Source of the DNA: Azospirillum sp. 51_20
GTDB taxonomy: Bacteria > Pseudomonadota > Alphaproteobacteria > RF32 > CAG-239
DNA: 64,000 nucleotides
Direction of reading: 5' to 3'
NCBI GenBank assembly: GCA_001917175.1
Contig: MNTV01000018.1
Coordinates: 53,907-117,906 of the forward strand
Shown: piece by piece, positions 18,318 to 31,222 of the stretch
How the letters are laid out: each line of letters begins with the position of its first letter
How positions within the stretch are numbered: the stretch's first letter is position 1
The notes under the pieces: generated by a model
The model's database searches: none
What the model was told of the DNA's origin: nothing
Seen by the model: the letters and a program-made list of their open reading frames with translations, nothing else
Translations under genes and position numbers: made by a program

Positions 18318-18408
18318 GGACAGGTGGCCGAGTGGTCGAAGGCGCACGATTGGAAATCGTGTGTACCCCTAAAGGGTACCAAGGGTTCGAATCCCTTTCT
18401 GTCCGCCA
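18318..18408 (+). tRNA. tRNA-Ser, anticodon GGA
   Basis: A manual fold gives a 7-bp acceptor stem (GGACAGG/TCTGTCC with one G-U pair) and an anticodon stem CACGA/TCGTG with loop TTGGAAA. There is a long variable arm of class II type, a GGTTCGAATCC T-loop, and an encoded CCA. Confidence 0.9.
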
Positions 18409-18416
18409 TTTTAATT

Positions 18417-18446
18417 AAAAAGACGCTCGTTTGCAGCGTCTTTTTT
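18417..18446 (+). terminator. Rho-independent terminator of the tRNA
   Basis: AAAAAGACGCT...AGCGTCTTTTTT hairpin. Confidence 0.65.
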
Positions 18447-18479
18447 CGTATCCGGCGGAAACACGGGCTTTGCGGGCAG

Positions 18480-18509
18480 TTGACATCGCCGAAATGACTA
18501 TGGTAAGCT
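18480..18509 (+). promoter_or_regulatory. Promoter-like element inside the direct repeat (TTGACA -35 and TAAGCT -10), reading into the island
   Basis: Perfect -35 hexamer, 18-bp spacer, and TAnnnT -10. It is conserved in the right-hand copy as TTGACT. Confidence 0.45.
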
Positions 18510-18591
18510 TGTTTTATGTTAAAAAATGCAAAAATTATGGCCCTTACATACAATGCCGATTTTTGTAAAGTCACTTCAGCGAGAAGAAACA

Positions 18592-19404
18592 ATGAGTGAG
18601 CTATCTTTTTCAGATAAAACAATTTTAGAAAATGCTTTGAATATGCATAATGGATATGTGTTAAATTTTACAGATCGTACTTTTTCAGATTTTTTTGCTA
18701 CGTTGGGAATAGATATTAATGCTGAAAAATACATGGCCAATGGAACATCTAAAGCTAATCGTCTTAGAACTTTTTGGAATATAGAAGATAATTTTGTAGT
18801 AGGGAAAGCAATTATAGAGTTAGCTAATATGATGAAGGCAGAAAATTTGTCTCAAACAACTGGTGTTAAAGCAGCGTGGATGACAGCTGGTGCTAAAAAT
18901 TTTTTTGAACAACAGCGAATATTAATTGAGCAAGTAGAAAAGATTGGATCAAAACTGGTAGATAATAAAGTTGTATCTCAAACAAAACCCAAGATAAATA
19001 CTTTTCAATATTGTAATGAACTTAATATCAGGATCAGAGAAGAAATTTACAGTCATATAAAACGTTATTTGGATAATGAAGATTATTTTCATGCTATAGA
19101 AGAGGCTTATAAAGTCGTAAGACATAAATTAAAAGAAATTACAGCAAAAGAAAAAGCCTCAGATGTTTTTAATCCAAATGCAGAAAATACCAAGTATCAT
19201 GAAAAATTATTTGGTGAAAATGCAGCTGTCGGCAGTCCTAAATATGATTTTTTTCGTGGTGTTGGTTATTTGCATTTGGCAGTTCAATTCCTACGAAATG
19301 AAAAAGCCCATATGCTAGCTCATGATTTAGATAAAAATTTGGCTCTTCATTATTTATCTTTGGCTAGCTTATCTTATGATTTAATTTCTAGAAATAACGT
19401 TTAA
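18592..19404 (+). CDS. Hypothetical protein. Its C-terminal region loosely resembles the Abi_C/TIGR02391 abortive-infection-associated domain. This is a tentative call.
   Basis: 271 aa, AT-rich. The C-terminus has FLRNEKAHML..HDLDKNLALHYLSL. It is the first gene inside the island, directly downstream of the repeat-borne promoter. Confidence 0.5.
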   Translation: MSELSFSDKTILENALNMHNGYVLNFTDRTFSDFFATLGIDINAEKYMANGTSKANRLRTFWNIEDNFVVGKAIIELANMMKAENLSQTTGVKAAWMTAGAKNFFEQQRILIEQVEKIGSKLVDNKVVSQTKPKINTFQYCNELNIRIREEIYSHIKRYLDNEDYFHAIEEAYKVVRHKLKEITAKEKASDVFNPNAENTKYHEKLFGENAAVGSPKYDFFRGVGYLHLAVQFLRNEKAHMLAHDLDKNLALHYLSLASLSYDLISRNNV

Positions 19405-21024
19405 CATCTTTTCCTGCTCTTCAAAGATTAGGTTTTTAGAGGCGATATCGAAGAGGGTTTGCAGATTGATGGTTAGGGTTCCGGAGAGAAGTTGATTGAC
19501 TATTCTTGGTGAGAGGTAGGCAAGGTTGAGATATTTGTAGATGGTACGTTTGGAGATGTGTTCTTGCTTGGCGATGTCATCGGTTGCCATACCGTTTTCA
19601 TAAAGTTTTTTATACCGCCAAGCATAGGCAAAGGCTCGGACAATCAAGCGGTTGTTGTCATTCACACTCATCAGCCCGACTTTACCAGCGTTATAGACAT
19701 TGCTTGACAGCCCGCGGTTGATGATGACTTGTTTTTCATAGATGATTTGATTGTTGGCATTATCGGCAATGAACTCTAGCGGATTATCGTTTTGGTTTAA
19801 CGAATCGCTGGTATAGGCTGAGAGAATTATCGGATCGGTATTAAAAAAGAAGGTCAGGCGATCTTTTTGATAGATGATTTTGTTAATGAAGTTGCGGATA
19901 AAATTGCGTTGCGCGAAGTAGTCCATATCAGTAAAGTTTATCAGCTTTAGAGCCATGGCGCTATCTTTGTTCAGCCCATTGAAGTTACTGTTAAGAATTT
20001 CAATTATGGCATCTTTGGCGAGCTTATCAATTTGTTCTGTTGGCAGGAACAAGCCTTTGATAGAATAGTAATGTCTTTTGGTAGCTTTCTTTTTGCTGTT
20101 GGCTTGATTGGTAAAAATGGTGCCATTGGCATCAAATAACTTGCCTGTCAGCAGGTTATTGTTTCGGCTCCTTGTATGATTAGCGCAGTTGTCATTTTCT
20201 TTGAGCATGGCTTGCACCTTTTCCCATAATTCTTTTGATATGATGGCCTCATGCTGTCCTTTAAATGCTTGTCCGGTGCGTTTGTTCTCAATCATGCCGA
20301 GGTATAATTTTTCATGCAGCAAGCGGTGGAGCGCGGATATTTTAAAAGGTTTGCCGCCTCTCTGTTCCCCCTTGTTGGTTATCCAGCTTTTATGTTTGAA
20401 ACCTTTAATTTCAGCAAATTTCTCAAGTTCGGTCAGAGAGCCGCATTGTAAATAGCCTTCAAAAATGCTGTGTACCTGTTCGGCCTCGACGGGATTAATG
20501 ACCAGTTTTTTGTCTTTAATATCATAACCAAGTTTGGGAACGCCGCCCGTCCATAAGCCTTTGGCTTTACTGGCGCGGATTTTATCACGGACACGCTCTG
20601 AGGATACCTCTCGCTCGAATTGAGCAAAGGACAGCAACATATTTAAGGTCAGCTTGCCCATGGAGGTTGAGGTATCAAATGCCTGTGTGATCGAAACAAA
20701 ACTGCAGCCATATTTATCAAATTCTTTCATCATATTGTGGAAGTCCATTATTGAACGTGACAAACGGTCAACTTTGTAAACCACTACCGTTTGAACTAAT
20801 CCTCGGCGGATGTCTTCAAGCATTTGTTTTAAAGCCGGGCGTTCCATTGTGCCGCCGGAAATGCCGCCGTCGGTATAGGTTTTGAAATATTCCCAGTTGT
20901 TAAAGGCTTGAGACATAATGTAACTGCGACAGGCGTCTTCCTGATTATGCAGCGAGTTAAACTCAAGCTCCAAGCCTTTTTCGGTAGATTTGCGGACATA
21001 GATCGCGCAGTTTATTCTAATCAT
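19381..21024 (-). CDS. Large serine recombinase (resolvase/invertase N-domain, recombinase domain, zinc ribbon)
   Basis: N-terminus AIYVRKSTEKG...VYKVDRLSRS matches a resolvase catalytic domain. At 547 aa it has the length of a large serine recombinase. Confidence 0.9.
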   Translation of the reverse strand: MIRINCAIYVRKSTEKGLELEFNSLHNQEDACRSYIMSQAFNNWEYFKTYTDGGISGGTMERPALKQMLEDIRRGLVQTVVVYKVDRLSRSIMDFHNMMKEFDKYGCSFVSITQAFDTSTSMGKLTLNMLLSFAQFEREVSSERVRDKIRASKAKGLWTGGVPKLGYDIKDKKLVINPVEAEQVHSIFEGYLQCGSLTELEKFAEIKGFKHKSWITNKGEQRGGKPFKISALHRLLHEKLYLGMIENKRTGQAFKGQHEAIISKELWEKVQAMLKENDNCANHTRSRNNNLLTGKLFDANGTIFTNQANSKKKATKRHYYSIKGLFLPTEQIDKLAKDAIIEILNSNFNGLNKDSAMALKLINFTDMDYFAQRNFIRNFINKIIYQKDRLTFFFNTDPIILSAYTSDSLNQNDNPLEFIADNANNQIIYEKQVIINRGLSSNVYNAGKVGLMSVNDNNRLIVRAFAYAWRYKKLYENGMATDDIAKQEHISKRTIYKYLNLAYLSPRIVNQLLSGTLTINLQTLFDIASKNLIFEEQEKMLNVISRN

Positions 21025-21469
21025 GAGCCGTCTCCTTTAATGCCCGTTTGTTATTTAATCCGAAGAAGTCATAACCGGAAACCTTTATGCCGCAGATTTC
21101 TTTGGCTACAGCGGATAAGGTTTTATAATGCTGTCCGTTGTAGATAAAATCGTTAATCTCAGCTATAGTAACCTTATATTGTCGACCAAGATAGGTTTTA
21201 ATGATTTCGGTACCGGGATGCAGATTGTATTTGGTCTTATAAACCTTAACCATACACTCATCGGGGTTTTCGGCGTATTTTTCTAGCTTAGTCAGATGTT
21301 TGCGTTCAATTTTAAGATTGGCGTTTTCGCAGGCGTTATAATACCACAGTGCGCGAAACTGCCGTTCATAGGGACTGTTATGATACCGCGCCCATAGTTC
21401 AGCTTGTTTCTGGTGATTTAGCTTTTTTAATTCTTCAGCGCTTTTCGGCAGATAAATCTTCTTTCTCAT
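21017..21469 (-). CDS. DUF2924-like protein, a partner commonly found upstream of large serine recombinases
   Basis: 150 aa. Its stop overlaps the recombinase start. It has an ELWARY...RQFRALWYY pattern. Confidence 0.55.
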   Translation of the reverse strand: MRKKIYLPKSAEELKKLNHQKQAELWARYHNSPYERQFRALWYYNACENANLKIERKHLTKLEKYAENPDECMVKVYKTKYNLHPGTEIIKTYLGRQYKVTIAEINDFIYNGQHYKTLSAVAKEICGIKVSGYDFFGLNNKRALKETAHD

Positions 21470-21662
21470 CGGTCAACTCCTTGTTTTTTATATATTTTCC
21501 AAGTAAAGCAACGCTTACTGTTTTAAGAAAGTCAAGCCTAATAGCTTGGTTTCTCCAAGCCTTTGATTTTTAATGATAAATCTCGAGTTTGATTTTTGTA
21601 TATTATATACAATCCTCCGTTTGAGGAGGAATCTGTTTAAATTGAAATAAAGGAGAAAAAGT

Positions 21663-22997
21663 ATGTCTGATATGTATATAAAAATTGAATATACAGCCTT
21701 GGAAAATCTTAACCCTTATAAAGGAAATCCTAAGGTTCATGACGAGAAACAAATTCAGCAAATTGCTAAGTCGATTGAAAGATTTGGTTTTAATAATCCC
21801 ATTTTGATTGATGAAAAATCAGAGGTAATTGCCGGTCATGGTCGTCTGTTGGCCGCAAGACTGTTAAAACTGGAAACAGTTCCGGTAGTTCGTCTCATAC
21901 ATCTTTCTGAAGCGGAAAAACGGGCTTATCGCATAGCAGACAATAAATTATCAGAGAATGGTCGATGGGATACGGATTTGTTAAAGCTGGAATTTTCAGA
22001 AATTGAGAAACTGGCTCTGAATCTTGAAGATGAATTGAATCTGGATATTACCGGGTTTGATTTTAAGGAGATAGATGTTCTTTTGGCCGATAATAAATCC
22101 AACGAAAAAGCGGATGAAAAACTTAATTCCGTTCCGTATGTGCCGGAAAATGAAATAGTCAGTCAACACGGCGATGTCTGGCTTCTGGGAAAACACAAAA
22201 TTATTTGCGGAGATTCATTGCAAGGGGAAACATATCAGCGTTTGTTTGAAGAGGTTAAAGCCAATATGGTTTTTATTGATTCGCCGTACAATGTTAAAAT
22301 TCAAGGACATGTTTGCGGCGCAGGTCAAACGAAGCATAAAGAGTTTGCCTTTGGTTCCGGCGAGATGAATGAGGCTGAATTTATTTCGTTTTTGAAAACA
22401 TCAATGGCGAATATAGCCAAATATTCTGCTGAAAATTCCATTCATTATATTTGCATGGATTGGCGACATATATCCGAGCTGCTTTCCGCTTCTCGAGATA
22501 TCTATCCCCAAATGCTGAATATGGTGGTTTGGTGCAAAAAGAATGGTGGGATGGGTAGTTTTTACCGATCCCAGCACGAATTGATTTTTGTTTTTCAGAA
22601 TGGAAAAGGCTCTCATGTTAATAATGTGGAGTTAGGCAAGCATGGCCGCTATCGAACAAATGTTTGGCATTATGCCGGTGTTAACAGTTTTGGCTCCGAA
22701 CAGAAAAATCTTAAAATGCATCCGACGGTCAAACCGGTAGAATTAGTCCGCGATGCAATTTTGGATGCGTCTAAACGGGGCGATATTGTGCTGGATGCGT
22801 TTCTCGGCAGCGGAACAACGCTGATTGCAGCAGAAAAAGCCGGACGTGTTTGTTATGGAATCGAGTATGAGCCCTTGTATATCGATACGATTATCCGTCG
22901 GTATCACGAATTAACTGGAAATTGGGCAATTCATCTAAGTTCGCAAAAATCATATGAGCAATTATTGCAAGAAAAATTGGAGAAAATCAATGAGTGA
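21663..22997 (+). CDS. ParB-like N-terminal domain fused to a DNA methyltransferase (N6-adenine / N4-cytosine beta class)
   Basis: N-terminal ParB-like segment (IAGHGRLLAA). The central DSPYN motif is of the DPPY type. The gene lies immediately upstream of terminase-associated genes, a typical phage arrangement. Confidence 0.8.
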   Translation: MSDMYIKIEYTALENLNPYKGNPKVHDEKQIQQIAKSIERFGFNNPILIDEKSEVIAGHGRLLAARLLKLETVPVVRLIHLSEAEKRAYRIADNKLSENGRWDTDLLKLEFSEIEKLALNLEDELNLDITGFDFKEIDVLLADNKSNEKADEKLNSVPYVPENEIVSQHGDVWLLGKHKIICGDSLQGETYQRLFEEVKANMVFIDSPYNVKIQGHVCGAGQTKHKEFAFGSGEMNEAEFISFLKTSMANIAKYSAENSIHYICMDWRHISELLSASRDIYPQMLNMVVWCKKNGGMGSFYRSQHELIFVFQNGKGSHVNNVELGKHGRYRTNVWHYAGVNSFGSEQKNLKMHPTVKPVELVRDAILDASKRGDIVLDAFLGSGTTLIAAEKAGRVCYGIEYEPLYIDTIIRRYHELTGNWAIHLSSQKSYEQLLQEKLEKINE

Positions 22998-23361
22998 AAG
23001 CGGTTATAAAAATCCGCCCAAACATTCGCGATTTCAGAAAGGGTGTTCGGGTAATCCTGCAGGGAGGCCGAAAGGAAGCAAGAACACGCTCAAACTTCTG
23101 GATGCTGTTTTGGAACAGAAAATTAAAATTCAGCAAGAGGGCAAAACCATCAGCATTACCAAAAAGCAGGCGATGCTGATGCAATTGGTTAATGCTGCGG
23201 TAAAAGGCGAAATTAAGGCCATTGCGGCGCTTTTTCCATACATGATGCAGCTGGACATGAAAGAAGAGCAATCCTTGGAAACAAACAAATTGTCTCTAAA
23301 AGATGAGGAAATTTTACAACAATTTTTAGAAGAAAATAAACAGGAGAGTAAAAATGACTGA
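22990..23361 (+). CDS. DUF5681-like protein of the kind usually found just upstream of a large terminase. It may be a small-terminase-like or packaging accessory protein.
   Basis: Basic N-terminus (KNPPKHSRFQKGCSGNPAGRPKGSKN). Its ATG overlaps the TGA of the preceding gene, and its stop overlaps the TerL start. Confidence 0.55.
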   Translation: MSESGYKNPPKHSRFQKGCSGNPAGRPKGSKNTLKLLDAVLEQKIKIQQEGKTISITKKQAMLMQLVNAAVKGEIKAIAALFPYMMQLDMKEEQSLETNKLSLKDEEILQQFLEENKQESKND

Positions 23362-24919
23362 TATAAATCAGGTTAAAAATGCGATATTACGCAAAAGTTT
23401 TTCAAGCTTTGTACAGAAGTGTTTTTATGAATTAAATCCTTCGGAGGCATTTATAAAAGGCGCGTATATAGACTTATTATGCGATCAAATCCAAAATATG
23501 ATAGAGGGAAAAAATCAGAAATTGATAATCAATCTTCCTCCAAGATATTTAAAATCGGTTATATGTTCTATAGCTTTGCCCGCGTTTATTTTGGGGCATA
23601 ATCCGTCAACTAAAATTATGTGCATCAGCTATGGTGAGGAGTTGGCTTCCAAATTAGCGGCTGATTGTAAGAGCGTTATGGAGGCGGATTGGTATAAAGC
23701 GCTTTTCCCTGAGACGAAAATCCGGACAGATAAAAAATCTGTTATGGATTTTGAAACGACAAAACACGGCGGACGGTTTGCGACGACAATTTCAGGAGCA
23801 GTCACAGGACGCGGCGCAGACTGGATTATTATAGATGATCCGCTAAAACCGGCTGATGCCCTTTCAGACGTGGTTAGGGAAAAAATTAATGAACTCTATG
23901 GAAATACTGTCAGTTCCAGACTGAATGATAAAAATACCGGGAGAATACTCGTGGTCATGCAGCGTTTGCATGCGCATGATTTATCCGGTTTCCTGTTTGA
24001 GAACGATCCTGATTTTAAGTCTATCGTCTTGCCGCTAATTGCTGAAAAAGATGAAAAATGGCAAATAAAAAATCGTATTGCCAAAACGATAACGACATAT
24101 GAGCGGAAAAAAGGAGAATTGTTGCATCCGGAACGCGAAGGCGAAAAAGTTGTAAACAGTTATCGCAATTCGATGAGTCCTTTTGTATTTTCTGCGCAAT
24201 ATCAGCAGAATCCAATGCCTATCGGCAGCGGAATGATCAAACAGGAGTGGATGAAGTATTATCAAGCACTGCCGTCAAGATTAGATAAAATTATTTTATC
24301 GTGGGATACAGCGGCTAAGGCTATGGAAAATAACGCTTATTCTGCCTGCGCGGTTGTCGGAATCGGAAATGAAAATGGTCAGAAATATTATCTGATAGAG
24401 GTGTTTCGCGGCAGACTTAATTTTCCTGAATTAACAAAAAAGGTTCAGGAAATATCTGATAAATATGAAAGAATTGCGCAGGGGCGGACTATAACTTTGA
24501 TTGAAGACGCCTCATCCGGAACTTCTTTATATCAAACGTTGAAAGGTAGAATCGCAAGCCTGAAGTCTGTTTTTTGCAAAGGTTCTAAGGAGCAGCGCTT
24601 TAATATTGTCACGTTAAAAACCGAGCAAGGGGACTTGTTGTTTCCGGGCAAATATGAATCCTGGTTCAAAAATTTTGAAGATGAGTTCTTAACTTTTCCG
24701 AATTCTTTATTTAAGGATCAATGTGACGCATTGAGCCAAGCCCTGAATTATGGTTTGGAAAATTATAATCAGGTTTCGCAAAATATGCCGTTGGCCGCCC
24801 GCGTGGATACGATGTGCGGTATGGGCGGTTATAATACCGGCATAGAGGAACTCTATAGCATGAATAATATACCATATAAATCTAATGGAGGCTATGCTTG
24901 GTGGAATGGTAAATCTTAA
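23354..24919 (+). CDS. Phage terminase large subunit
   Basis: 521 aa with an N-terminal ATPase region (hhhhDDP Walker B at WIIIDDPLKP) and a C-terminal nuclease-like region. Confidence 0.75.
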   Translation: MTDINQVKNAILRKSFSSFVQKCFYELNPSEAFIKGAYIDLLCDQIQNMIEGKNQKLIINLPPRYLKSVICSIALPAFILGHNPSTKIMCISYGEELASKLAADCKSVMEADWYKALFPETKIRTDKKSVMDFETTKHGGRFATTISGAVTGRGADWIIIDDPLKPADALSDVVREKINELYGNTVSSRLNDKNTGRILVVMQRLHAHDLSGFLFENDPDFKSIVLPLIAEKDEKWQIKNRIAKTITTYERKKGELLHPEREGEKVVNSYRNSMSPFVFSAQYQQNPMPIGSGMIKQEWMKYYQALPSRLDKIILSWDTAAKAMENNAYSACAVVGIGNENGQKYYLIEVFRGRLNFPELTKKVQEISDKYERIAQGRTITLIEDASSGTSLYQTLKGRIASLKSVFCKGSKEQRFNIVTLKTEQGDLLFPGKYESWFKNFEDEFLTFPNSLFKDQCDALSQALNYGLENYNQVSQNMPLAARVDTMCGMGGYNTGIEELYSMNNIPYKSNGGYAWWNGKS

Positions 24920-24925
24920 GACGTT

Positions 24926-25258
24926 TTACTTGGCGATTATTTCAAAATTGTCAATCAGCTTTAGCAGGGATTCCTTTTGAGAATCAGTCATAAGGTTGAG
25001 TTTGCGGATGATTTTGTCTTTCACGTCCTGCTGCGATATATCTTCTTTCAAATCTTTGGTAATATCAATGTCCAAAGCGAAAAGCAGTTTGTACAGCGAG
25101 TAGGAGCGCGGATTTTGCTTTTGATTCTCAATCAAGTTAATAGACGAATAATCCATACCGCTCAGCTCGGACAATTTTTCACTGGAAATTTTGCCGGCTA
25201 ATCGTCTTTTTCGAATAGAATCGCTGATAAGCCTTAAAAACTCTTTTTCATTAAGCAT
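24926..25258 (-). CDS. XRE-family helix-turn-helix transcriptional regulator
   Basis: 110 aa with an HTH at KISSEKLSELSGMDYSSINLIENQKQNP. It is divergent from the downstream plus-strand block, with an AT-rich promoter region at 25259-25379. Confidence 0.75.
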   Translation of the reverse strand: MLNEKEFLRLISDSIRKRRLAGKISSEKLSELSGMDYSSINLIENQKQNPRSYSLYKLLFALDIDITKDLKEDISQQDVKDKIIRKLNLMTDSQKESLLKLIDNFEIIAK

Positions 25259-25379
25259 GCTTCACCCCTTAAAAATATATTGGGATGATACAATAGCTTT
25301 TTCGATAAAAGTATTGCGATAAAACAATATAATTTTATTGACTAAACAAAATAATTAAACCAACATAAGGAGAAAGAAA

Positions 25380-25673
25380 ATGGCGTTAGTTTACGTTACG
25401 GACATTGAATATCAGGCAGATATAAAAGTATTTGCCGTTAATGAGAGGTATCAGGCTGATTTATGTTTTTTCGAGGTTGATCGAGATTACAAGGCCAATA
25501 CGGAGGCAAAATGGTTTTTTGAAGATAAGGACTATAAAGCGACGGTTAAAATATATTGGGTTGAACATGAGTATCAGGCAGATTTGAAAGTCTTCCGGGT
25601 TACGCAGGAACACCTAGCCGGTTGGCAAAAGAGCCACCGTTTGATTACGAGATTGGGAAAATACACATATTAA
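25380..25673 (+). CDS. Small protein built from tandem ~12-residue repeats (EYQADIKVF / RYQADLCFF / DYKANTEAKWFF / DYKATVKIYWV / EYQADLKVF)
   Basis: Direct reading of the 97-aa ORF. The repeats have period [D/E/R]Y[Q/K]A[D/N/T] followed by alternating hydrophobic positions. A strong AAGGAG ribosome-binding site lies upstream. Confidence 0.5.
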   Translation: MALVYVTDIEYQADIKVFAVNERYQADLCFFEVDRDYKANTEAKWFFEDKDYKATVKIYWVEHEYQADLKVFRVTQEHLAGWQKSHRLITRLGKYTY

Positions 25674-25686
25674 AGGAGATAAAAAA

Positions 25687-25935
25687 ATGACAGAAGAAGT
25701 TAAAAAAGAAACCCCAAAAACAAAATTGCCCGGCTTGCCGCCGTTGGTTGCGTTTATTTATGCGGTTCTCATTTTTATTATGACCATGGGGTACCTTAAG
25801 GTATTTCTTATTATGGGTTTCAGGATGAATCCTGATGAAGCCGGAATATTGTCATTTTTTGCGGGAGCGTTTTTTGCCTATATCGGCAACAAAGGAGTTA
25901 GAGCCATGTTTAAGCTGAGAGAACTGTCAAAATAA
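25687..25935 (+). CDS. Small membrane protein (2-3 TM)
   Basis: 82-aa hydrophobic ORF translationally close to its neighbours. Confidence 0.45.
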   Translation: MTEEVKKETPKTKLPGLPPLVAFIYAVLIFIMTMGYLKVFLIMGFRMNPDEAGILSFFAGAFFAYIGNKGVRAMFKLRELSK

Positions 25936-25947
25936 AGGATTTAGGTT

Positions 25948-26760
25948 ATGGTTAGGATATTGCGCGCAGCAACTTGGAACTTTGGCTACGGTTCTGTTGG
26001 TTCACCCAGCAAGAACAACAAGACGAAAGTTCAAAAAGCCCTTGAATATCTGCGGAAAAATAATGTGGATATTGTTTTGGCGCAGGAAATTTTTGATCCA
26101 AACGAGTTGCGGCGTCTTTATCCTAACCAGATTTATTCTGACGTTCCCGTTTATAATCCGCAGGGGCAAGGATTATGGGGCGCGATGGATTTTTCGATTG
26201 ATACGCGCAATAACAATAGCCGCCCTAAATGGGGAACGGCGATATTGGCTGCCGAGAATGTCAATTTGAGCAAAATTGAGTTAAAATATAGCACCGCCTA
26301 TCCGGGAAGCATGACTGTTGCACAGATTGCAGGAACGGACATTGCCGTTATTTCCATGTATGGCAAAAATGTCTATGATTATGAAAAAGTAACGGCTTTT
26401 TCGTATCTGGCCAATCTGCATCGCTGTTTATCCGATACTGCGCCGCTGCTGGACGGTTTTTCTTCTGCCAAAAGATTTATTATCGCCGGCGATTGGAATG
26501 CCGGGCCGCAATGGGATAAGGGAAAGTCGCGCAAGAATTTTAACTTTTTTGAGCGGTTGGCAACCTTTGATCTTAAGGATTGTTTGGGGCATTTTCCTGA
26601 CGGCGGTTATGAAACGACATTTAAACATAACGGCAATCGACAAATAGACTGGATGTTTGCCAGCCAGGCGTTTACTGTTCATAATCCGCATATTGACTAT
26701 GTAGCGGAGATTGAGGATTTGTCTGATCATTACCCGATAATTGCGGAATTTGAGATATGA
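25948..26760 (+). CDS. Endonuclease/exonuclease/phosphatase (EEP) family protein
   Basis: 270 aa. N-terminal ATWNFGYG and C-terminal SDHYPIIAEF motifs are typical of the EEP fold. Confidence 0.75.
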   Translation: MVRILRAATWNFGYGSVGSPSKNNKTKVQKALEYLRKNNVDIVLAQEIFDPNELRRLYPNQIYSDVPVYNPQGQGLWGAMDFSIDTRNNNSRPKWGTAILAAENVNLSKIELKYSTAYPGSMTVAQIAGTDIAVISMYGKNVYDYEKVTAFSYLANLHRCLSDTAPLLDGFSSAKRFIIAGDWNAGPQWDKGKSRKNFNFFERLATFDLKDCLGHFPDGGYETTFKHNGNRQIDWMFASQAFTVHNPHIDYVAEIEDLSDHYPIIAEFEI

Positions 26761-27188
26761 AAAAGGGTAATGTAATGTTTTGGAAATTCTTATTTTTAGG
26801 CTTTATTGTATGTTTTTCTGTTCAAGCACAGGAAAAAGCCAATAGTACCAGCGAACAAAATGATTATGGTATCTTTATTATCGGTGTTGCGATTTATTTA
26901 CTTTTTAAAGCAGTGGGGGTTATCTGGCATTATCGCTGTCCGAAATGCAAAAAATGGTGGGTAATGCGACAGGAAAAGAAAGAACTGCTGAATACGGATG
27001 TTGTGACCGAATCCAGAAAAGAAGAAATAAAAGACAATAACGGAAATGTGTTGCGGGTAGAGGAAGTAGAGGTTCCCGTATTGGTTCGTCATTATGAAAT
27101 TTGGCGAAAATGTAAGCATTGCGGACATCTTGTTAAGATTTTTGAAGACGAGAAGGAAGAAAAATATAACAGAACACCGCTTAAATAA
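26757..27188 (+). CDS. Membrane-anchored zinc-ribbon protein
   Basis: Signal/TM sequence at the N-terminus, a second TM, and two CxxC pairs (CPKCKKW ... CKHCGH). Confidence 0.5.
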   Translation: MKKGNVMFWKFLFLGFIVCFSVQAQEKANSTSEQNDYGIFIIGVAIYLLFKAVGVIWHYRCPKCKKWWVMRQEKKELLNTDVVTESRKEEIKDNNGNVLRVEEVEVPVLVRHYEIWRKCKHCGHLVKIFEDEKEEKYNRTPLK

Positions 27189-27203
27189 TGAGAGGAAACA
27201 GAT

Positions 27204-28160
27204 ATGCGGAAAATTAGTTGGCTGGCGATTTTGTTGATAGGCGGATGTACTCTGATAGTAGAACAGAGTAATCTTGTTTCCTTAAATGATTCTTCAGAAT
27301 TCCGCTTTCTGGATGAACAGGTATTCATATGCTCGTGCCGTCAGCTCAAGGAAGAAAGTTATGATATTTTCTATGCGGCGGAAAATCAAAAATGTCTGGA
27401 AGAGAATGCCAAGCAAATGCAAAAGCTGTCCGAACAGATTGAGCAGACGAATGATTTAATTAAGAAAGAGAAACTTCTTGATGATGTATTGGCAAGTTCT
27501 GAAAAGTTTGATGCCTGTAAAATATCTAAGGGGTTAACTGTTGCCGGTTTTGCTAAACAATCTAATGACAGCGCTATTGCATACTGGGAGCGTGATAAAA
27601 TAATCGCTTATTTTACCCAAACTTATCAGATTTGTGAAAATGGAGAATATTTTGATAAGAATGACGGAAGCCGTATTGTTGCGGATTATCAAACTGTGGC
27701 GCGGCAAAAAGAGAAAAATACGCCGAAGATAGAAAAATTTAAGGAGTTAAAAAGCAAAATTTCCTCTCAAAATCAGATGAATAAAAAGATTGCGGCGCTT
27801 TTATCCGGAGACAATCCGATTATAAGAAAAATGCAGCAGGCAGCTCCTGATTTTATGCGGGTAAAGGTTAATGAATGTCCGATAATCTTTTTTGTGCAGT
27901 TTCTCAAGGAAAATGTGGCAATGTTTAATTCTGATTTTGCCTTTGCTGATAACTATCAATTTAAGAAAAAAGGCGCAGACACGCTTGTTTTGACTGTCGG
28001 TGATATCGAATATACTTTCCTGAAAAAAGGAAAAGACAGCGCGGATGTCATAATTGTTAAAGATATTGATCAATGGGGCAATCAGATAATCAATAAAAGC
28101 ACTATTCTAAATAATATTGACGTTTCCTCATCGTGCTGGGGGTATTATAAGGCTATATAA
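27204..28160 (+). CDS. Lipoprotein of unknown function
   Basis: MRKISWLAILLIGGC lipobox. 318 aa, AT-rich. Confidence 0.55.
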   Translation: MRKISWLAILLIGGCTLIVEQSNLVSLNDSSEFRFLDEQVFICSCRQLKEESYDIFYAAENQKCLEENAKQMQKLSEQIEQTNDLIKKEKLLDDVLASSEKFDACKISKGLTVAGFAKQSNDSAIAYWERDKIIAYFTQTYQICENGEYFDKNDGSRIVADYQTVARQKEKNTPKIEKFKELKSKISSQNQMNKKIAALLSGDNPIIRKMQQAAPDFMRVKVNECPIIFFVQFLKENVAMFNSDFAFADNYQFKKKGADTLVLTVGDIEYTFLKKGKDSADVIIVKDIDQWGNQIINKSTILNNIDVSSSCWGYYKAI

Positions 28161-28246
28161 AAAATTTGGAGATATTTGCATTTAATTGTAGAAATATTGT
28201 ATGTAAACTGATATTAACTAATTATTAATAACTTTAAGATTAGCTA

Positions 28247-29071
28247 ATGTTAAATAGAGACTTAATAATATCTCCTTTTTTAAAATGGGCAGGTGGAAAG
28301 CGTTGGCTTATTCATCAATGCATTGATATTTTCCCTAAGCAAAATGAATATAATGTTTATTATGAACCTTTTTTGGGAAGTGCGGCGGTTTTTTTTCATT
28401 TAAAACCGTTTCATGCTGTTTTATCTGATATTAATGCGGAACTAATAGATACATATAAAACTATTAAAAGTTCTCCTTCCGCTGTCGTTTCATTATTGAA
28501 AAATCATCATAATTTACATAGCAAAGAACATTATTATCATGTAAGAAGTGCTTTATATTCTAACGATGTTGAAAAAGCTGCTCGTTTTATTTACTTAAAT
28601 AGAACTTGTTGGAATGGGTTATATCGTGTTAATAATTCTGGAGGATTTAATGTCCCTATCGGCACTAAAACAAAAGTGATTCTCGATAACGATAATTTTG
28701 AGGCAGTTGCTAAATTGTTAGAAAATGCAATAATATTAAAAATGGATTTTGAAGAAGCTATGCAACAAGCTCAAAAAAATGATTTTATTTTTGTAGATCC
28801 TCCATATACAGTTAAACACAATTCTAATGCTTTTGTGCAATATAATGAAACGTTGTTTTCTTGGGCGGATCAAGTTCGTTTAAGAGATAGCGTAGAAAGT
28901 GCTGTTAGTAGAGGTGTTAAAGTTTTAGTTACAAATGCTAATCACTCCTCAATTAGAGAGTTATATGATGGTTTGGGAGATATGATCTGTTTATCTAGAG
29001 CTAGCGTTTTGGCATCAAATCCTGAAAAAAGGGGGAAATATGAGGAGTTAGCTATAAAATGTGGTTATTAA
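28247..29071 (+). CDS. Dam-family (D12 class) N6-adenine DNA methyltransferase
   Basis: N-terminus PFLKWAGGKRWL, FxGSAAV, and a DPPY motif (FVDPPYT). 274 aa. Strongly AT-rich relative to the host sequence. Confidence 0.8.
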   Translation: MLNRDLIISPFLKWAGGKRWLIHQCIDIFPKQNEYNVYYEPFLGSAAVFFHLKPFHAVLSDINAELIDTYKTIKSSPSAVVSLLKNHHNLHSKEHYYHVRSALYSNDVEKAARFIYLNRTCWNGLYRVNNSGGFNVPIGTKTKVILDNDNFEAVAKLLENAIILKMDFEEAMQQAQKNDFIFVDPPYTVKHNSNAFVQYNETLFSWADQVRLRDSVESAVSRGVKVLVTNANHSSIRELYDGLGDMICLSRASVLASNPEKRGKYEELAIKCGY

Positions 29072-29577
29072 ATATAAGAAAAATAGGCTTTGAATTATGG
29101 AAATGGCTTCTAGCATGGTTTTTTGTCTCTTTACCTTCTTTAGTTACAATGTTCTGGCTATGGGTAAGAGAAAAAGAGCTTGCTAAACCAAGTATCATGG
29201 GCATTGGTACGAGTGAATTCCTTGTTTATGCTATATCTTTTTCTGCCCCATTGTTTGCTCAGTGTTTCTTTAAAAATAGAACAAAAAAGTTATTTCATTT
29301 TACAGATTTTATTGCTTTTATAATTTTTTTAGCATCAATAGTTCTATTTATTATGCTAAAAGAAGAAACAGCAATAGATAAATTAAATATATTATTTAGA
29401 TGGGTTTTGATATTGTATATAGCTTCTTTACTATTTTCTTTGTTATCAGCTTTATGCATTGCTCTTATTCCAGATAGAGAAACTATTGAAAAAGCAAATA
29501 TTGAGCAACAAAATGATTTTAATTCTGCATTTGATAAAATCTTAGAAGAACGAGGTGTGAAAAATGAACACATATAA
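29059..29577 (+). CDS. Membrane protein with four predicted TM helices and unknown function
   Basis: 172 aa. It overlaps the Dam stop by 13 nt, and its own stop is overlapped by the DGQHR gene start. Confidence 0.55.
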   Translation: MWLLNIRKIGFELWKWLLAWFFVSLPSLVTMFWLWVREKELAKPSIMGIGTSEFLVYAISFSAPLFAQCFFKNRTKKLFHFTDFIAFIIFLASIVLFIMLKEETAIDKLNILFRWVLILYIASLLFSLLSALCIALIPDRETIEKANIEQQNDFNSAFDKILEERGVKNEHI

Positions 29578-30718
29578 AACTAAGGTTATTAAAGTTCGTC
29601 AACCGATAGGTGACTTTTATATAGCATCTTTGCCTTGTAGTATCGTTGCTCAAATTGCGACTGCAGATGTTAGGCGTTTGGAAGAGCGAGATGTAGAGAA
29701 ATATCTTGGAATACAAAGGCCTTTAAAAGAAGATCGAGTTAAAGAACTACAAAAATATGTTAAAACTATGGATGCGACATTTCCTACTTCTGTTATTTTA
29801 GCGGTTGATGAGAAGTGTGCATCTTTAAATGAAGATGATATGGAGTTAACGTTGTCTGAATACATAGATAATGAACATCCTGAAGATTCTATTCCAATGG
29901 AACAAGTTGCAAAAATAATTGATGGTCAACACCGAATAGCTAGTTTCGTTGAAATAGATAAGGATGGACAACGTATATTTAAGTTTGGAGATGAAATTTT
30001 TGATATAAGTGTGGCAATATTTATTGGCGCGGATATATCGCAACAAGCTAACATTTTTTCTACGGTTAATTTAGCTCAAACTAAGGTAAACAAAAGTTTA
30101 GCATATGATTTAGCAGATTTAGCAAAATATAGAAGTCCTCAAAAAACATGTCATATGATTTCAGTTATGCTTGATTCTAGAGAAGATAGTCCTTTTTATC
30201 AAAGAATTAAGCGGTTAGGTGTCAAAACACAAGGGCGGGTACAGTTAGAGCCTTTAACTCAAGCTGTGTTTGTTGAAGCTTTGATGAAATTTATATCTGC
30301 AGAACCGATGAAAGATAGAGATTTGTTGCAGAGGAAAAAAAGTCTTCCACTGCTTAACGATAAAGATTTAGTCAAATTTCCTTTTAGAAATTTGTTTATT
30401 GAAGAAAAAGATTCAGATATTGCATTTATTATATATGAATATTTTTCAGCAATAAAAAGTTTGTGGCCAAAATCATGGAATGATTTAACGACTAAAGGAA
30501 ATATTCTGCCTAAAAGTAATGCTTTTAGGGCTTTTATGCGGTATTTACATGAAATATGTGGAGAAAATCTAAATAAAATTATGAATAGAAATGACTTTTT
30601 GTCGTATTTTAATAAAGATGCTTTTATTGATGGAGATGTTACCAGCCAACAATTTTTACCAGGTAGTGGTGGAGAAGCTGCATTTTTGAAAAAATTACAA
30701 AAAAAGCATTGTGATTAA
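29564..30718 (+). CDS. DGQHR-domain protein (DndB-like, ParB/Srx-related DNA-binding family)
   Basis: Contains the literal motif IIDGQHRIASF. 384 aa. It is the last gene of the plus-strand block in the island. Confidence 0.75.
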   Translation: MNTYKTKVIKVRQPIGDFYIASLPCSIVAQIATADVRRLEERDVEKYLGIQRPLKEDRVKELQKYVKTMDATFPTSVILAVDEKCASLNEDDMELTLSEYIDNEHPEDSIPMEQVAKIIDGQHRIASFVEIDKDGQRIFKFGDEIFDISVAIFIGADISQQANIFSTVNLAQTKVNKSLAYDLADLAKYRSPQKTCHMISVMLDSREDSPFYQRIKRLGVKTQGRVQLEPLTQAVFVEALMKFISAEPMKDRDLLQRKKSLPLLNDKDLVKFPFRNLFIEEKDSDIAFIIYEYFSAIKSLWPKSWNDLTTKGNILPKSNAFRAFMRYLHEICGENLNKIMNRNDFLSYFNKDAFIDGDVTSQQFLPGSGGEAAFLKKLQKKHCD

Positions 30719-30972
30719 TCCCTTTTTTTGATAAAAATTCCCTGATAAATTTGTGGCTAGGTAGGCACAATCCAAGTAAATCTGTATATTTGTGAGAATT
30801 TTGCATGTAAAATCCACCCAAATTTCCCTGCAGATTCTCTGTTATTAGAGAATGGATAATGATACATTCGTAATTTGGTGGTAGAAAAGATTTATGGTCA
30901 TCGGTTTAGAATATTAGCGAAATTTCATCTTTCGTATGCTTAATACCGTTGGGGTTTACTACACCGCCATTT

Positions 30973-31122
30973 TGATTAAAAAGACGCTAAATGATAGCGT
31001 CTTTTTTTGTATCCGGCGGAAATGCGGGCTTTGCGGGCGGTTGACTTCGCCGAAATGACTATGGTAAGCTCGTTTTATATTGGAAAATGCAAAGTTTTAG
31101 GCAGTTACATACGATGCCAGTC
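30973..31122. repeat. Right copy of the ~150-bp direct repeat. It is not preceded by a tRNA.
   Basis: See the 18403-18560 entry. It begins ACACCGCCATTTTGATTAAAAAGACGCT. Confidence 0.75.
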
Positions 31123-31127
31123 AGCTA

Positions 31128-31222
31128 ACCGCACCGGACGGACCTGCCGGTATTAAAATGGTATAACAAAAGCGAAGCGGCTGCAGCGGCGGCAAGGTAT
31201 AAAAATAAAAATGCGAATGCCG
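31128..31222. repeat. Right copy of the ~100-bp inverted repeat
   Basis: See the 17965-18063 entry. Confidence 0.7.

Follow-up and report, generated by a model that had tools for sequence, protein, structure and literature searches.

A Dam-linked pair of membrane and DGQHR-domain genes as a candidate modification-keyed immunity cassette

Why should a Dam-family DNA methyltransferase gene stand in one overlapping series with genes for a small membrane protein and a DGQHR-domain protein? The question is raised by three genes at the end of a genomic island in Azospirillum sp. 51_20 (Alphaproteobacteria), which we studied in a stretch of 64,000 nucleotides (GenBank assembly GCA_001917175.1, contig MNTV01000018.1, positions 53,907 to 117,906 of the forward strand; hereafter the window, numbered from its first letter). 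The answer we prefer, with confidence that is evenly balanced, is that the trio would be a self-contained, horizontally mobile, DNA-modification-keyed system, most likely serving anti-phage or anti-plasmid immunity. A sequence-only reading of the same DNA had called it a candidate uncharacterised defence or DNA-modification system, a description that gains support from the conservation of the trio, from the absence of dnd, dpd and ssp genes beside it and from the absence of a PADLOC model for it, its function being predicted.

The three genes overlap by 13 nt (methylase and membrane gene) and 14 nt (membrane and DGQHR genes), and both downstream starts have a Shine-Dalgarno-like hexamer embedded in the preceding gene, a layout that fits the requirement for translational coupling (Table 1). 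The sequence-only reading had proposed the same open reading frames (ORFs), with the same overlaps and translational coupling; its coordinates match our ORF list exactly, with all three genes on the plus strand, and the overlaps and embedded hexamers agree with coupling. A promoter and terminator scan of 27900-31200 gave no signal above shuffled expectation, and in that scan the 86-nt gap 5' of the Dam gene held no consensus promoter.

The strength of the case lies in how regularly these genes recur together. We compared 12 genome, 80 metagenome and 21 IMG/VR loci, along with loci around individual proteins and plasmid records, and found the cassette in Alpha-, Beta- and Gammaproteobacteria, Bacteroidota, Spirochaetota, Planctomycetota, Campylobacterota and other taxa. 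Relatives of the DGQHR protein are abundant: at least 4,629 of 8,000 scored candidates reached E ≤1e-5, thousands of relatives have 40-55% identity in very different phyla, and one pattern scan confirmed 339 metagenome loci. A census of linkage covered the 98 loci with adequate flanks, and in 90 of these a close Dam homologue (mostly 50-60% identity) adjoins the pair of membrane and DGQHR genes, amid unrelated flanking genes, so the trio is conserved as a unit. The methylase gene lies upstream and co-directional, in the order Dam, membrane gene, DGQHR gene, in 76 loci; directly downstream and convergent to the pair in 12; and upstream of an additional DGQHR paralogue of 757-760 aa, which separates it from the membrane gene, in 2 (L010 3091-5373 in a Mucilaginibacter genome and L048 2072-4345 on a metagenome contig). 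Wherever enough upstream sequence is present, an ORF of 150-260 aa with 2-5 hydrophobic segments runs up to the DGQHR start.

Several of the eight loci that lack a close Dam homologue carry another modification gene in its place. A divergent D12 methylase of 380-390 aa stands in L079 and L122 (and in L086, whose short flanks put it outside the 98), and an MT-A70 methylase with a BglII/BstYI-family endonuclease in L123 (and in L066, also too short in its flanks for the census); L075 has a BglII-like endonuclease at the contig edge, L020 is a decayed island described below, and L008, L051 and L078 are taken up where our reading is weighed. The association is thus kept despite rearrangement and methylase swapping, and this persistence speaks for a functional tie with adenine methylation. 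Endonucleases of the BglII/BstYI family, which cut at AGATCT and RGATCY, lie beside the pair at L066 260-988, L075 17-976, L122 1084-1731 and L123 1846-2652 and are accompanied by MT-A70 or long D12 methylases; these neighbours may point to a GATC-core specificity, or to joint action with classical restriction-modification (R-M).

The three proteins also vary together. In a non-redundant set of 62 complete trios, DGQHR proteins share on average 49% pairwise identity, Dam proteins 51% and membrane proteins 18%, and Mantel correlations of the pairwise identities are 0.78 between DGQHR and membrane proteins, 0.53 between DGQHR and Dam, and 0.45 between Dam and membrane proteins (each p = 0.001); since the loci are phylogenetically non-independent, these figures describe co-inheritance and are no proof of interaction. 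We saw no dnd, dpd or ssp genes in the neighbourhoods of the window trio or of about 100 related loci, and the DGQHR protein scores far below the cutoffs for DndB and DpdB, in agreement with the sequence-only reading, which had noted that no such partner was present.

The identity of each product could be settled to different degrees by hidden Markov model (HMM) searches, which bore out the Dam-type and DGQHR families named in the sequence-only reading, gave the membrane ORF no match and found no model of the system in PADLOC-DB 2.0. The methylase belongs to the Dam family (PF02086, E 8.5e-53; TIGR00571, 250.8 bits against a cutoff of 114.85), falls well short of the E. coli-type Dam equivalog NF008152 (139.4 bits against 441 required), and has as its closest solved relative DpnM (2dpm; 187 bits, against 103 bits for E. 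coli Dam), the GATC methylase of the DpnII system. All 62 trio methylases carry the motifs DPPY, WAGGK and EPFxG without variation, which suggests an enzyme that is active in kind, and the target of the window methylase is probably GATC, to judge from the 187-bit DpnM match and the recurrent BglII/BstYI neighbours. Within PADLOC it scores best against generic methyltransferase models, reaching 351 bits with the REBASE-derived 'Type II MTase' models, with minor matches to PD-Lambda-5_B (E 6e-14) and mad2 (E 0.003).

The DGQHR protein scores 208.5 bits against TIGR03187 (cutoff 58.85) and matches PF14072 at E 5e-17. The DGQHR domain is defined by a QR pair, the DGQHR pentapeptide and FxxxN (PMC4619093), and this nucleotide-binding motif is intact here (Q51-R52, D120-G-Q-H-R124 and F165xxxN169) and invariant in a 30-sequence alignment with a mean column identity of 63% over the whole 384 aa. 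PF14072 is the only Pfam match, with no DUF262 and no DUF1524, which places the protein outside SspE, DndI and GmrSD; its PADLOC matches are limited to DpdB (E 2e-21) and DndB (E 8e-9), and PHROGs returned only a marginal ParB match. It is not a member of the DndB or DpdB families as modelled, with 26.2 bits against 328 for DndB (TIGR03233; N-terminal 180 residues only) and 61.3 bits against 300 for DpdB (NF041060; residues 7-227 only). We also considered a HEPN domain, which has been stated for the DndB C-terminus (PMC3632139), and rejected it: 'RAFMRYLH' in the C-terminus of the window protein has Rx6H, but the histidine is not conserved in the alignment.

The third protein has four hydrophobic helices and a charged C-terminal helix by hydropathy, as the sequence-only reading had it with its four-transmembrane protein, and an AlphaFold model (pLDDT 69) places helices at 2-40, 48-71, 76-102, 107-136 and 140-164; the topology is probably N-in/C-in, with the C-terminal helix in the cytoplasm. 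It matches no family in Pfam, NCBIfam, PADLOC or PHROGs. It nevertheless belongs to a real family, as an HMM built from ten upstream ORFs matches 90 of 92 unique upstream membrane ORFs and none of 92 shuffled controls. A low-sensitivity, word-indexed search for proteins that join the membrane protein to DGQHR or Dam in one chain found none, returning 30 short unannotated matches.

A second setting of a similar pair comes from the closest named family, TIGR04172 ('DNA phosphorothioation-associated DGQHR protein 1'), the sole model that matches the window protein over its full length (profile positions 2-373 of 381, 194 bits, about 25-28% identity). The score of 194.4 bits lies below the cutoff of 450, and the window gene adjoins Dam and not dnd. 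In 2011 Haft's group proposed that TIGR04172 is a modification-dependent satellite of phosphorothioation, in their words a 'satellite family analogous to DptFGH' (PMC3226654). In all five TIGR04172-like plasmid loci that we examined (from Rhizobium, Ruegeria, Mesorhizobium, Aliivibrio and Aureimonas), a hypothetical ORF of 171-206 aa with 3-4 transmembrane segments lies directly upstream of the DGQHR gene, and the pairs adjoin dndBCDE, dptH or Pbe-like genes (Table 1); the literature that we read does not mention this small ORF. The partner module of TIGR04172 is thus dndBCDE or Pbe-like, with phosphorothioate as its mark, whereas the partner in the window is Dam, and the pair appears to attach to different DNA-modification modules. 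The Rhizobium locus also encodes DndB, so the sister DGQHR protein there is not a DndB substitute. A tentative extension, which we think could well be wrong, is that the membrane and DGQHR proteins form a so far unrecognised modular unit of modification reader and membrane output for chemically different marks (m6A, N6-methyladenine, from Dam or MT-A70 in the loci of the trio, and phosphorothioate, the product of Dnd, in those of the sister family), in which a ParB-fold NTPase clamp would search DNA for the mark and signal to a membrane partner and not to a nuclease. A more distant arrangement occurs on Zymomonas pZZM405 (L132 2176-7219), where a 496-aa DGQHR protein has a phospholipase-C-domain protein upstream in the membrane protein's place and, on its other side, an unknown protein of 440 aa and then a Dam gene, a different partner set that keeps the Dam link.

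The places where the cassette is found elsewhere vary widely. In P. aeruginosa it lies in a mobile-element region with ParA and integrase genes, and a small C-protein-like XRE gene overlaps the Dam start; a 15-kb Acinetobacter plasmid carries it beside RelE/ParE and a BglII/BstYI R-M system, and on an Agrobacterium/Rhizobium Ri plasmid its neighbours are VapC and an R-M system. P2-like prophages have the pair directly 3' of a CI-like repressor (helix-turn-helix and S24 peptidase) and co-directional with it, followed by a convergent Dam gene and then umuC or tail gene D (gpD). Housekeeping genes flank the cassette in Leptospira and Chryseobacterium, and it is common at chromosomal sites without an obvious mobile element. 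The tRNA-linked island, plasmids, P2-like prophages and mobile-element region would be typical contexts of defence cargo. The phage link of the cassette comes entirely from IMG/VR prophage predictions, and a tblastn search of the isolated phage genomes in INPHARED gave no match.

The window's own trio forms the 3' end of a low-GC island of 12.7 kb (18403-31118) that lies beside tRNA-Ser(GGA) and has 155-nt direct repeats as its ends. The other cargo includes a large serine recombinase, DUF2924, a ParB-N6/N4 methylase, DUF5681 and the terminase large subunit TerL, and the island looks like a satellite or defective prophage, with TerL present and no capsid or tail genes. GC content is 0.30-0.32 at 28-31 kb, 0.36-0.43 in the remaining island and 0.45-0.60 in the flanks, so that the trio is, as the sequence-only reading had described it, the most AT-rich stretch of the island; GC content is also the one sign that the trio may have been acquired recently. 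The island is poor in GATC sites, with 22 where 47 are expected (a ratio of 0.47, compared with 1.02 and 0.93 in the two flanks), and the trio has 4 against an expected 6.4. A small helix-turn-helix protein at 24926-25258 on the minus strand weakly matches CapH (E 2e-6) in PADLOC, along with models of R-M control proteins.

Variants of the island help to delimit the cassette. An identical copy is present on a human-gut metagenome contig and a 95% relative in an uncultured alphaproteobacterial metagenome-assembled genome; L001 (95% identical) keeps the recombinase and the trio, and the cargo between them differs. The sequence-only reading had put the trio at the end of an accessory block under XRE control, which is a putative arrangement, and in L001 the trio stands behind other cargo. 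Three tightly packed genes 5' of the trio (25948-28160) are all missing from L001: they encode an EEP-family nuclease/phosphatase of 270 aa, a 143-aa protein (orf143) that has two CxxC pairs and begins with a hydrophobic segment, and a 318-aa protein (orf318) whose hydrophobic N-terminal segment is a possible signal peptide, and none has a PADLOC or PHROG match. As L001 has the trio without them, we rejected these genes as members of the system. In another host, L020 (contig OGQM01000358.1, 4465-6800) retains at its tRNA-Ser site, between two copies of the repeat, a remnant consisting of the last 165 nt of the membrane gene and a DGQHR gene that is intact and shares 99.7% identity with the window; it is a decayed island in which the loss of Dam went along with that of most of the membrane gene. 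A short, low-coverage contig (L021 1-601) fuses unrelated sequence to window position 29497, within the membrane gene; either another deletion variant or a chimeric assembly may explain it.

Table 1. Positions of the trio, its expression signals and the island ends in the window, and of the TIGR04172-like pairs in other loci (named in the position column).
Feature	Position	Strand	Basis or remark
Dam-family N6-adenine DNA methyltransferase ORF (274 aa)	28247-29071	+	D12 class; PF02086, TIGR00571; stop codon 29069-29071 by sequence reading
GAGGAG Shine-Dalgarno-like site for membrane-protein gene	29042-29047	+	inside Dam 3' end; 11 nt before ATG 29059
Small polytopic membrane protein ORF (172 aa)	29059-29577	+	hydropathy, AlphaFold, family HMM; stop codon 29575-29577 by sequence reading
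GAGGTG Shine-Dalgarno-like site for DGQHR gene	29552-29557	+	inside membrane-gene 3' end; 6 nt before ATG 29564
DGQHR-domain protein ORF (384 aa)	29564-30718	+	ParB/Srx-fold N-terminal domain and C-terminal helical domain
tRNA-Ser(GGA)	18318-18408		
Left 155-nt direct repeat	18403-18557	+	begins at tRNA-Ser(GGA) 3' end
Right 155-nt direct repeat	30964-31118	+	85% identity; 246 nt past DGQHR stop; marks island end
TIGR04172-like pair	L125 7466-9239		
TIGR04172-like pair	L127 8441-10215		
TIGR04172-like pair	L128 8459-10188		
TIGR04172-like pair	L130 3348-5251		
TIGR04172-like pair	L131 3432-5269		

How such a trio might confer immunity can be sketched from its relatives. Dam would methylate adenines of the resident DNA, probably at GATC-type sites, and thereby mark self. 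The DGQHR protein, a predicted ParB/Srx-fold NTPase with a helical DNA-binding domain, would correspond to the 'reader' half of SspE, DndI, GmrSD and NsnA without the fused nuclease; it may load on DNA and, in one direction or the other, distinguish methylated from unmethylated DNA through its NTPase cycle. In SspE and DndI, DUF262 ParB-like domains read phosphorothioate via an NTPase cycle, and an HNH nuclease fused to them is under their control (PMC11662687); NsnA, DndB, GmrSD and SspE have in common a helical domain that follows the ParB domain (PMC12065111), and ParB-fold proteins act as NTP-dependent switches, with a DndB-like protein binding both ATP and GTP (bioRxiv 10.1101/2025.10.10.680097). 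The four-helix membrane protein, as the obligate partner of the DGQHR protein, would supply the output, perhaps by membrane permeabilisation in a Rex-like abortive infection or perhaps by tethering the reader, as in Kiwa, at the membrane where foreign DNA enters; in any single type of output we have less confidence than in the reading as a whole.

A number of observations weigh against immunity of this kind. The loci of the census are not phylogenetically independent, and three of them (L008, L051 and L078) show the pair without a methylase in view, as does a 7.9-kb Lactiplantibacillus (L. plantarum) plasmid without any methylase. Four loci carry a classical restriction endonuclease, and therefore the pair is not simply an 'R gene'. 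In the DGQHR protein, searches of Pfam, NCBIfam and PADLOC detected neither a nuclease family or motif nor another known effector domain, and the membrane protein has no homology to any PADLOC model or other known effector; its comparison with RexB by hhalign gives a probability of 0.6%, that is, no homology. Between the Dam-linked and dnd-linked membrane proteins homology was likewise not detected (hhalign probability 1.4%), so that their parallel is one of architecture only, in size, topology and position. The defence phenotype, finally, is a prediction drawn from sequence comparison.

Other explanations for the same facts differ mainly in what they make of the membrane protein. The trio could be a classical R-M system in which the DGQHR protein cuts or nicks DNA for restriction by virtue of its ParB/Srx fold, and the membrane protein only anchors or positions it. 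This is an unlikely account but one to be taken seriously: the modification gene precedes and is translationally coupled to the putative restriction gene, a C-protein-like helix-turn-helix gene lies upstream in P. aeruginosa, Dam linkage is tight both in the 62-trio alignment and in the census, and DNase or nicking activity is reported for the ParB/Srx-fold proteins Osa and RK2 ParB (as cited in PMC10853773 and PMC12839542). Set against it are the lack of a nuclease match just described, the reliance of the related readers SspE, DndI, GmrSD and Menshen on a separate HNH/DUF1524 nuclease, the BglII/BstYI endonucleases that some loci already carry, and the obligate, co-varying membrane partner (r = 0.78), which a soluble nuclease leaves unexplained. 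The membrane partner is also unexplained if the DGQHR protein controls or assists methylation, in the manner of DndB (an ATP-modulated repressor) or DpdB (an ATPase helper), and serves the epigenetic or anti-restriction needs of the element. The characterised relatives do work in this way, DndB regulating phosphorothioation and DpdB powering DpdA (PMC4507180; PMC10853773; PMC12839542), and the cassette sits on phages, plasmids and elements resembling integrative and conjugative elements, which are frequent carriers of orphan Dam genes. The dnd cluster with a sister DGQHR gene in Rhizobium (L125), however, already has DndB, so the pair adds something else; scores against the DndB and DpdB models are far below their cutoffs, the DGQHR gene survives without Dam in the decayed island, and control of methylation does not explain a mean column identity of 63% over 384 aa across phyla. 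We regard it as a slightly weaker candidate than the R-M account.

Two further explanations fare worse. A post-segregational killing cassette with no anti-phage role, in which loss of Dam would yield unmethylated DNA and this would release a membrane toxin through the DGQHR protein, could account for the plasmid copies that lie beside other toxin-antitoxin genes and for L020, where the DGQHR gene stayed intact when Dam disappeared along with most of the membrane gene. It uses the same sensing logic as immunity and is compatible with it, R-M systems doing both, but the cassette is common at chromosomal sites without an obvious mobile element, and as the sole function we consider addiction improbable. 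That a solitary phage Dam merely adjoins two unrelated ORFs, of which the membrane ORF is no real gene, might be suggested by an AT-rich region and a membrane ORF without a database family; the 90 of 98 loci, the HMM result with its shuffled controls and the co-variation of the genes effectively refute chance juxtaposition, and we give it almost no credence.

If the trio is indeed a modification-keyed immunity system, it would have consequences beyond this island. Modification-based immunity (R-M, Dnd, Ssp, Dpd and BREX) is normally read out by nucleases, and the trio pairs Dam with a putative ParB-fold NTPase and a membrane protein; it would represent a new type or logic of effector for methylation-keyed defence and would give a function to orphan-looking Dam genes on mobile elements. 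Through its sister family it would explain the phosphorothioation 'satellite' TIGR04172, uncharacterised since 2011, and if the modular unit is real it could be the missing restriction partner of many dnd clusters without dndFGH. The cassette is widespread and compact, its components are small and easily cloned, and its carriers include the clinically relevant P. aeruginosa mobile-element region and Acinetobacter plasmid as well as Agrobacterium/Rhizobium Ri plasmids.

Comparison with systems already described places the trio near several of them. PADLOC-DB 2.0, the one defence catalogue that we compared, includes Kiwa, Menshen, PD-Lambda-5 and MADS; it does not model the trio and gives 0 matches to the membrane protein. 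In the full-text literature searched, which leaves out many subscription papers, no paper names or tests the trio, and a recent description is therefore possible. A P. aeruginosa genome report did notice the cluster, took the membrane gene for a PHO-4 transporter and guessed at a 7-deazaguanine R-M system (PMC9073672), which we reject because neither dpdA nor tgt is present and the protein stays far under the DpdB cutoff. With DndB and DpdB the DGQHR protein shares the DGQHR/ParB-like N-terminal domain (PF14072) and partnership with DNA-modifying enzymes, but the match covers only the N-terminal 180-227 residues, trio loci have no dndCDE or dpdA neighbours, and DndB and DpdB have no membrane partner. 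The resemblance to type II R-M of the DpnII, or GATC, type lies in a methylase nearest DpnM and an operon with the modification gene first; a membrane protein and a ParB-fold protein take the place of the restriction endonuclease, and some related loci additionally carry a true BglII/BstYI enzyme.

RexAB and Kiwa (KwaAB) are two-gene modules of a small four-transmembrane protein and a cytosolic, DNA-associated partner, and in P2-like prophages the pair lies directly 3' of a CI-like repressor and co-directional with it, as rexAB does. There is no sequence relationship to either (for RexB the comparison given above; for Kiwa, catalogued in PADLOC, no match there), and neither Rex nor Kiwa has a methylase. 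SspE, DndI, GmrSD and BrxU combine DUF262 with a fused HNH/DUF1524 nuclease and respond to phosphorothioate or a hypermodified base, whereas the window protein belongs to PF14072/TIGR03187, has a membrane partner where they have a nuclease domain, and would be keyed to m6A. The trio would fall within modification-keyed immunity with a ParB-fold reader, and its membrane output has a real chance of setting it further apart.

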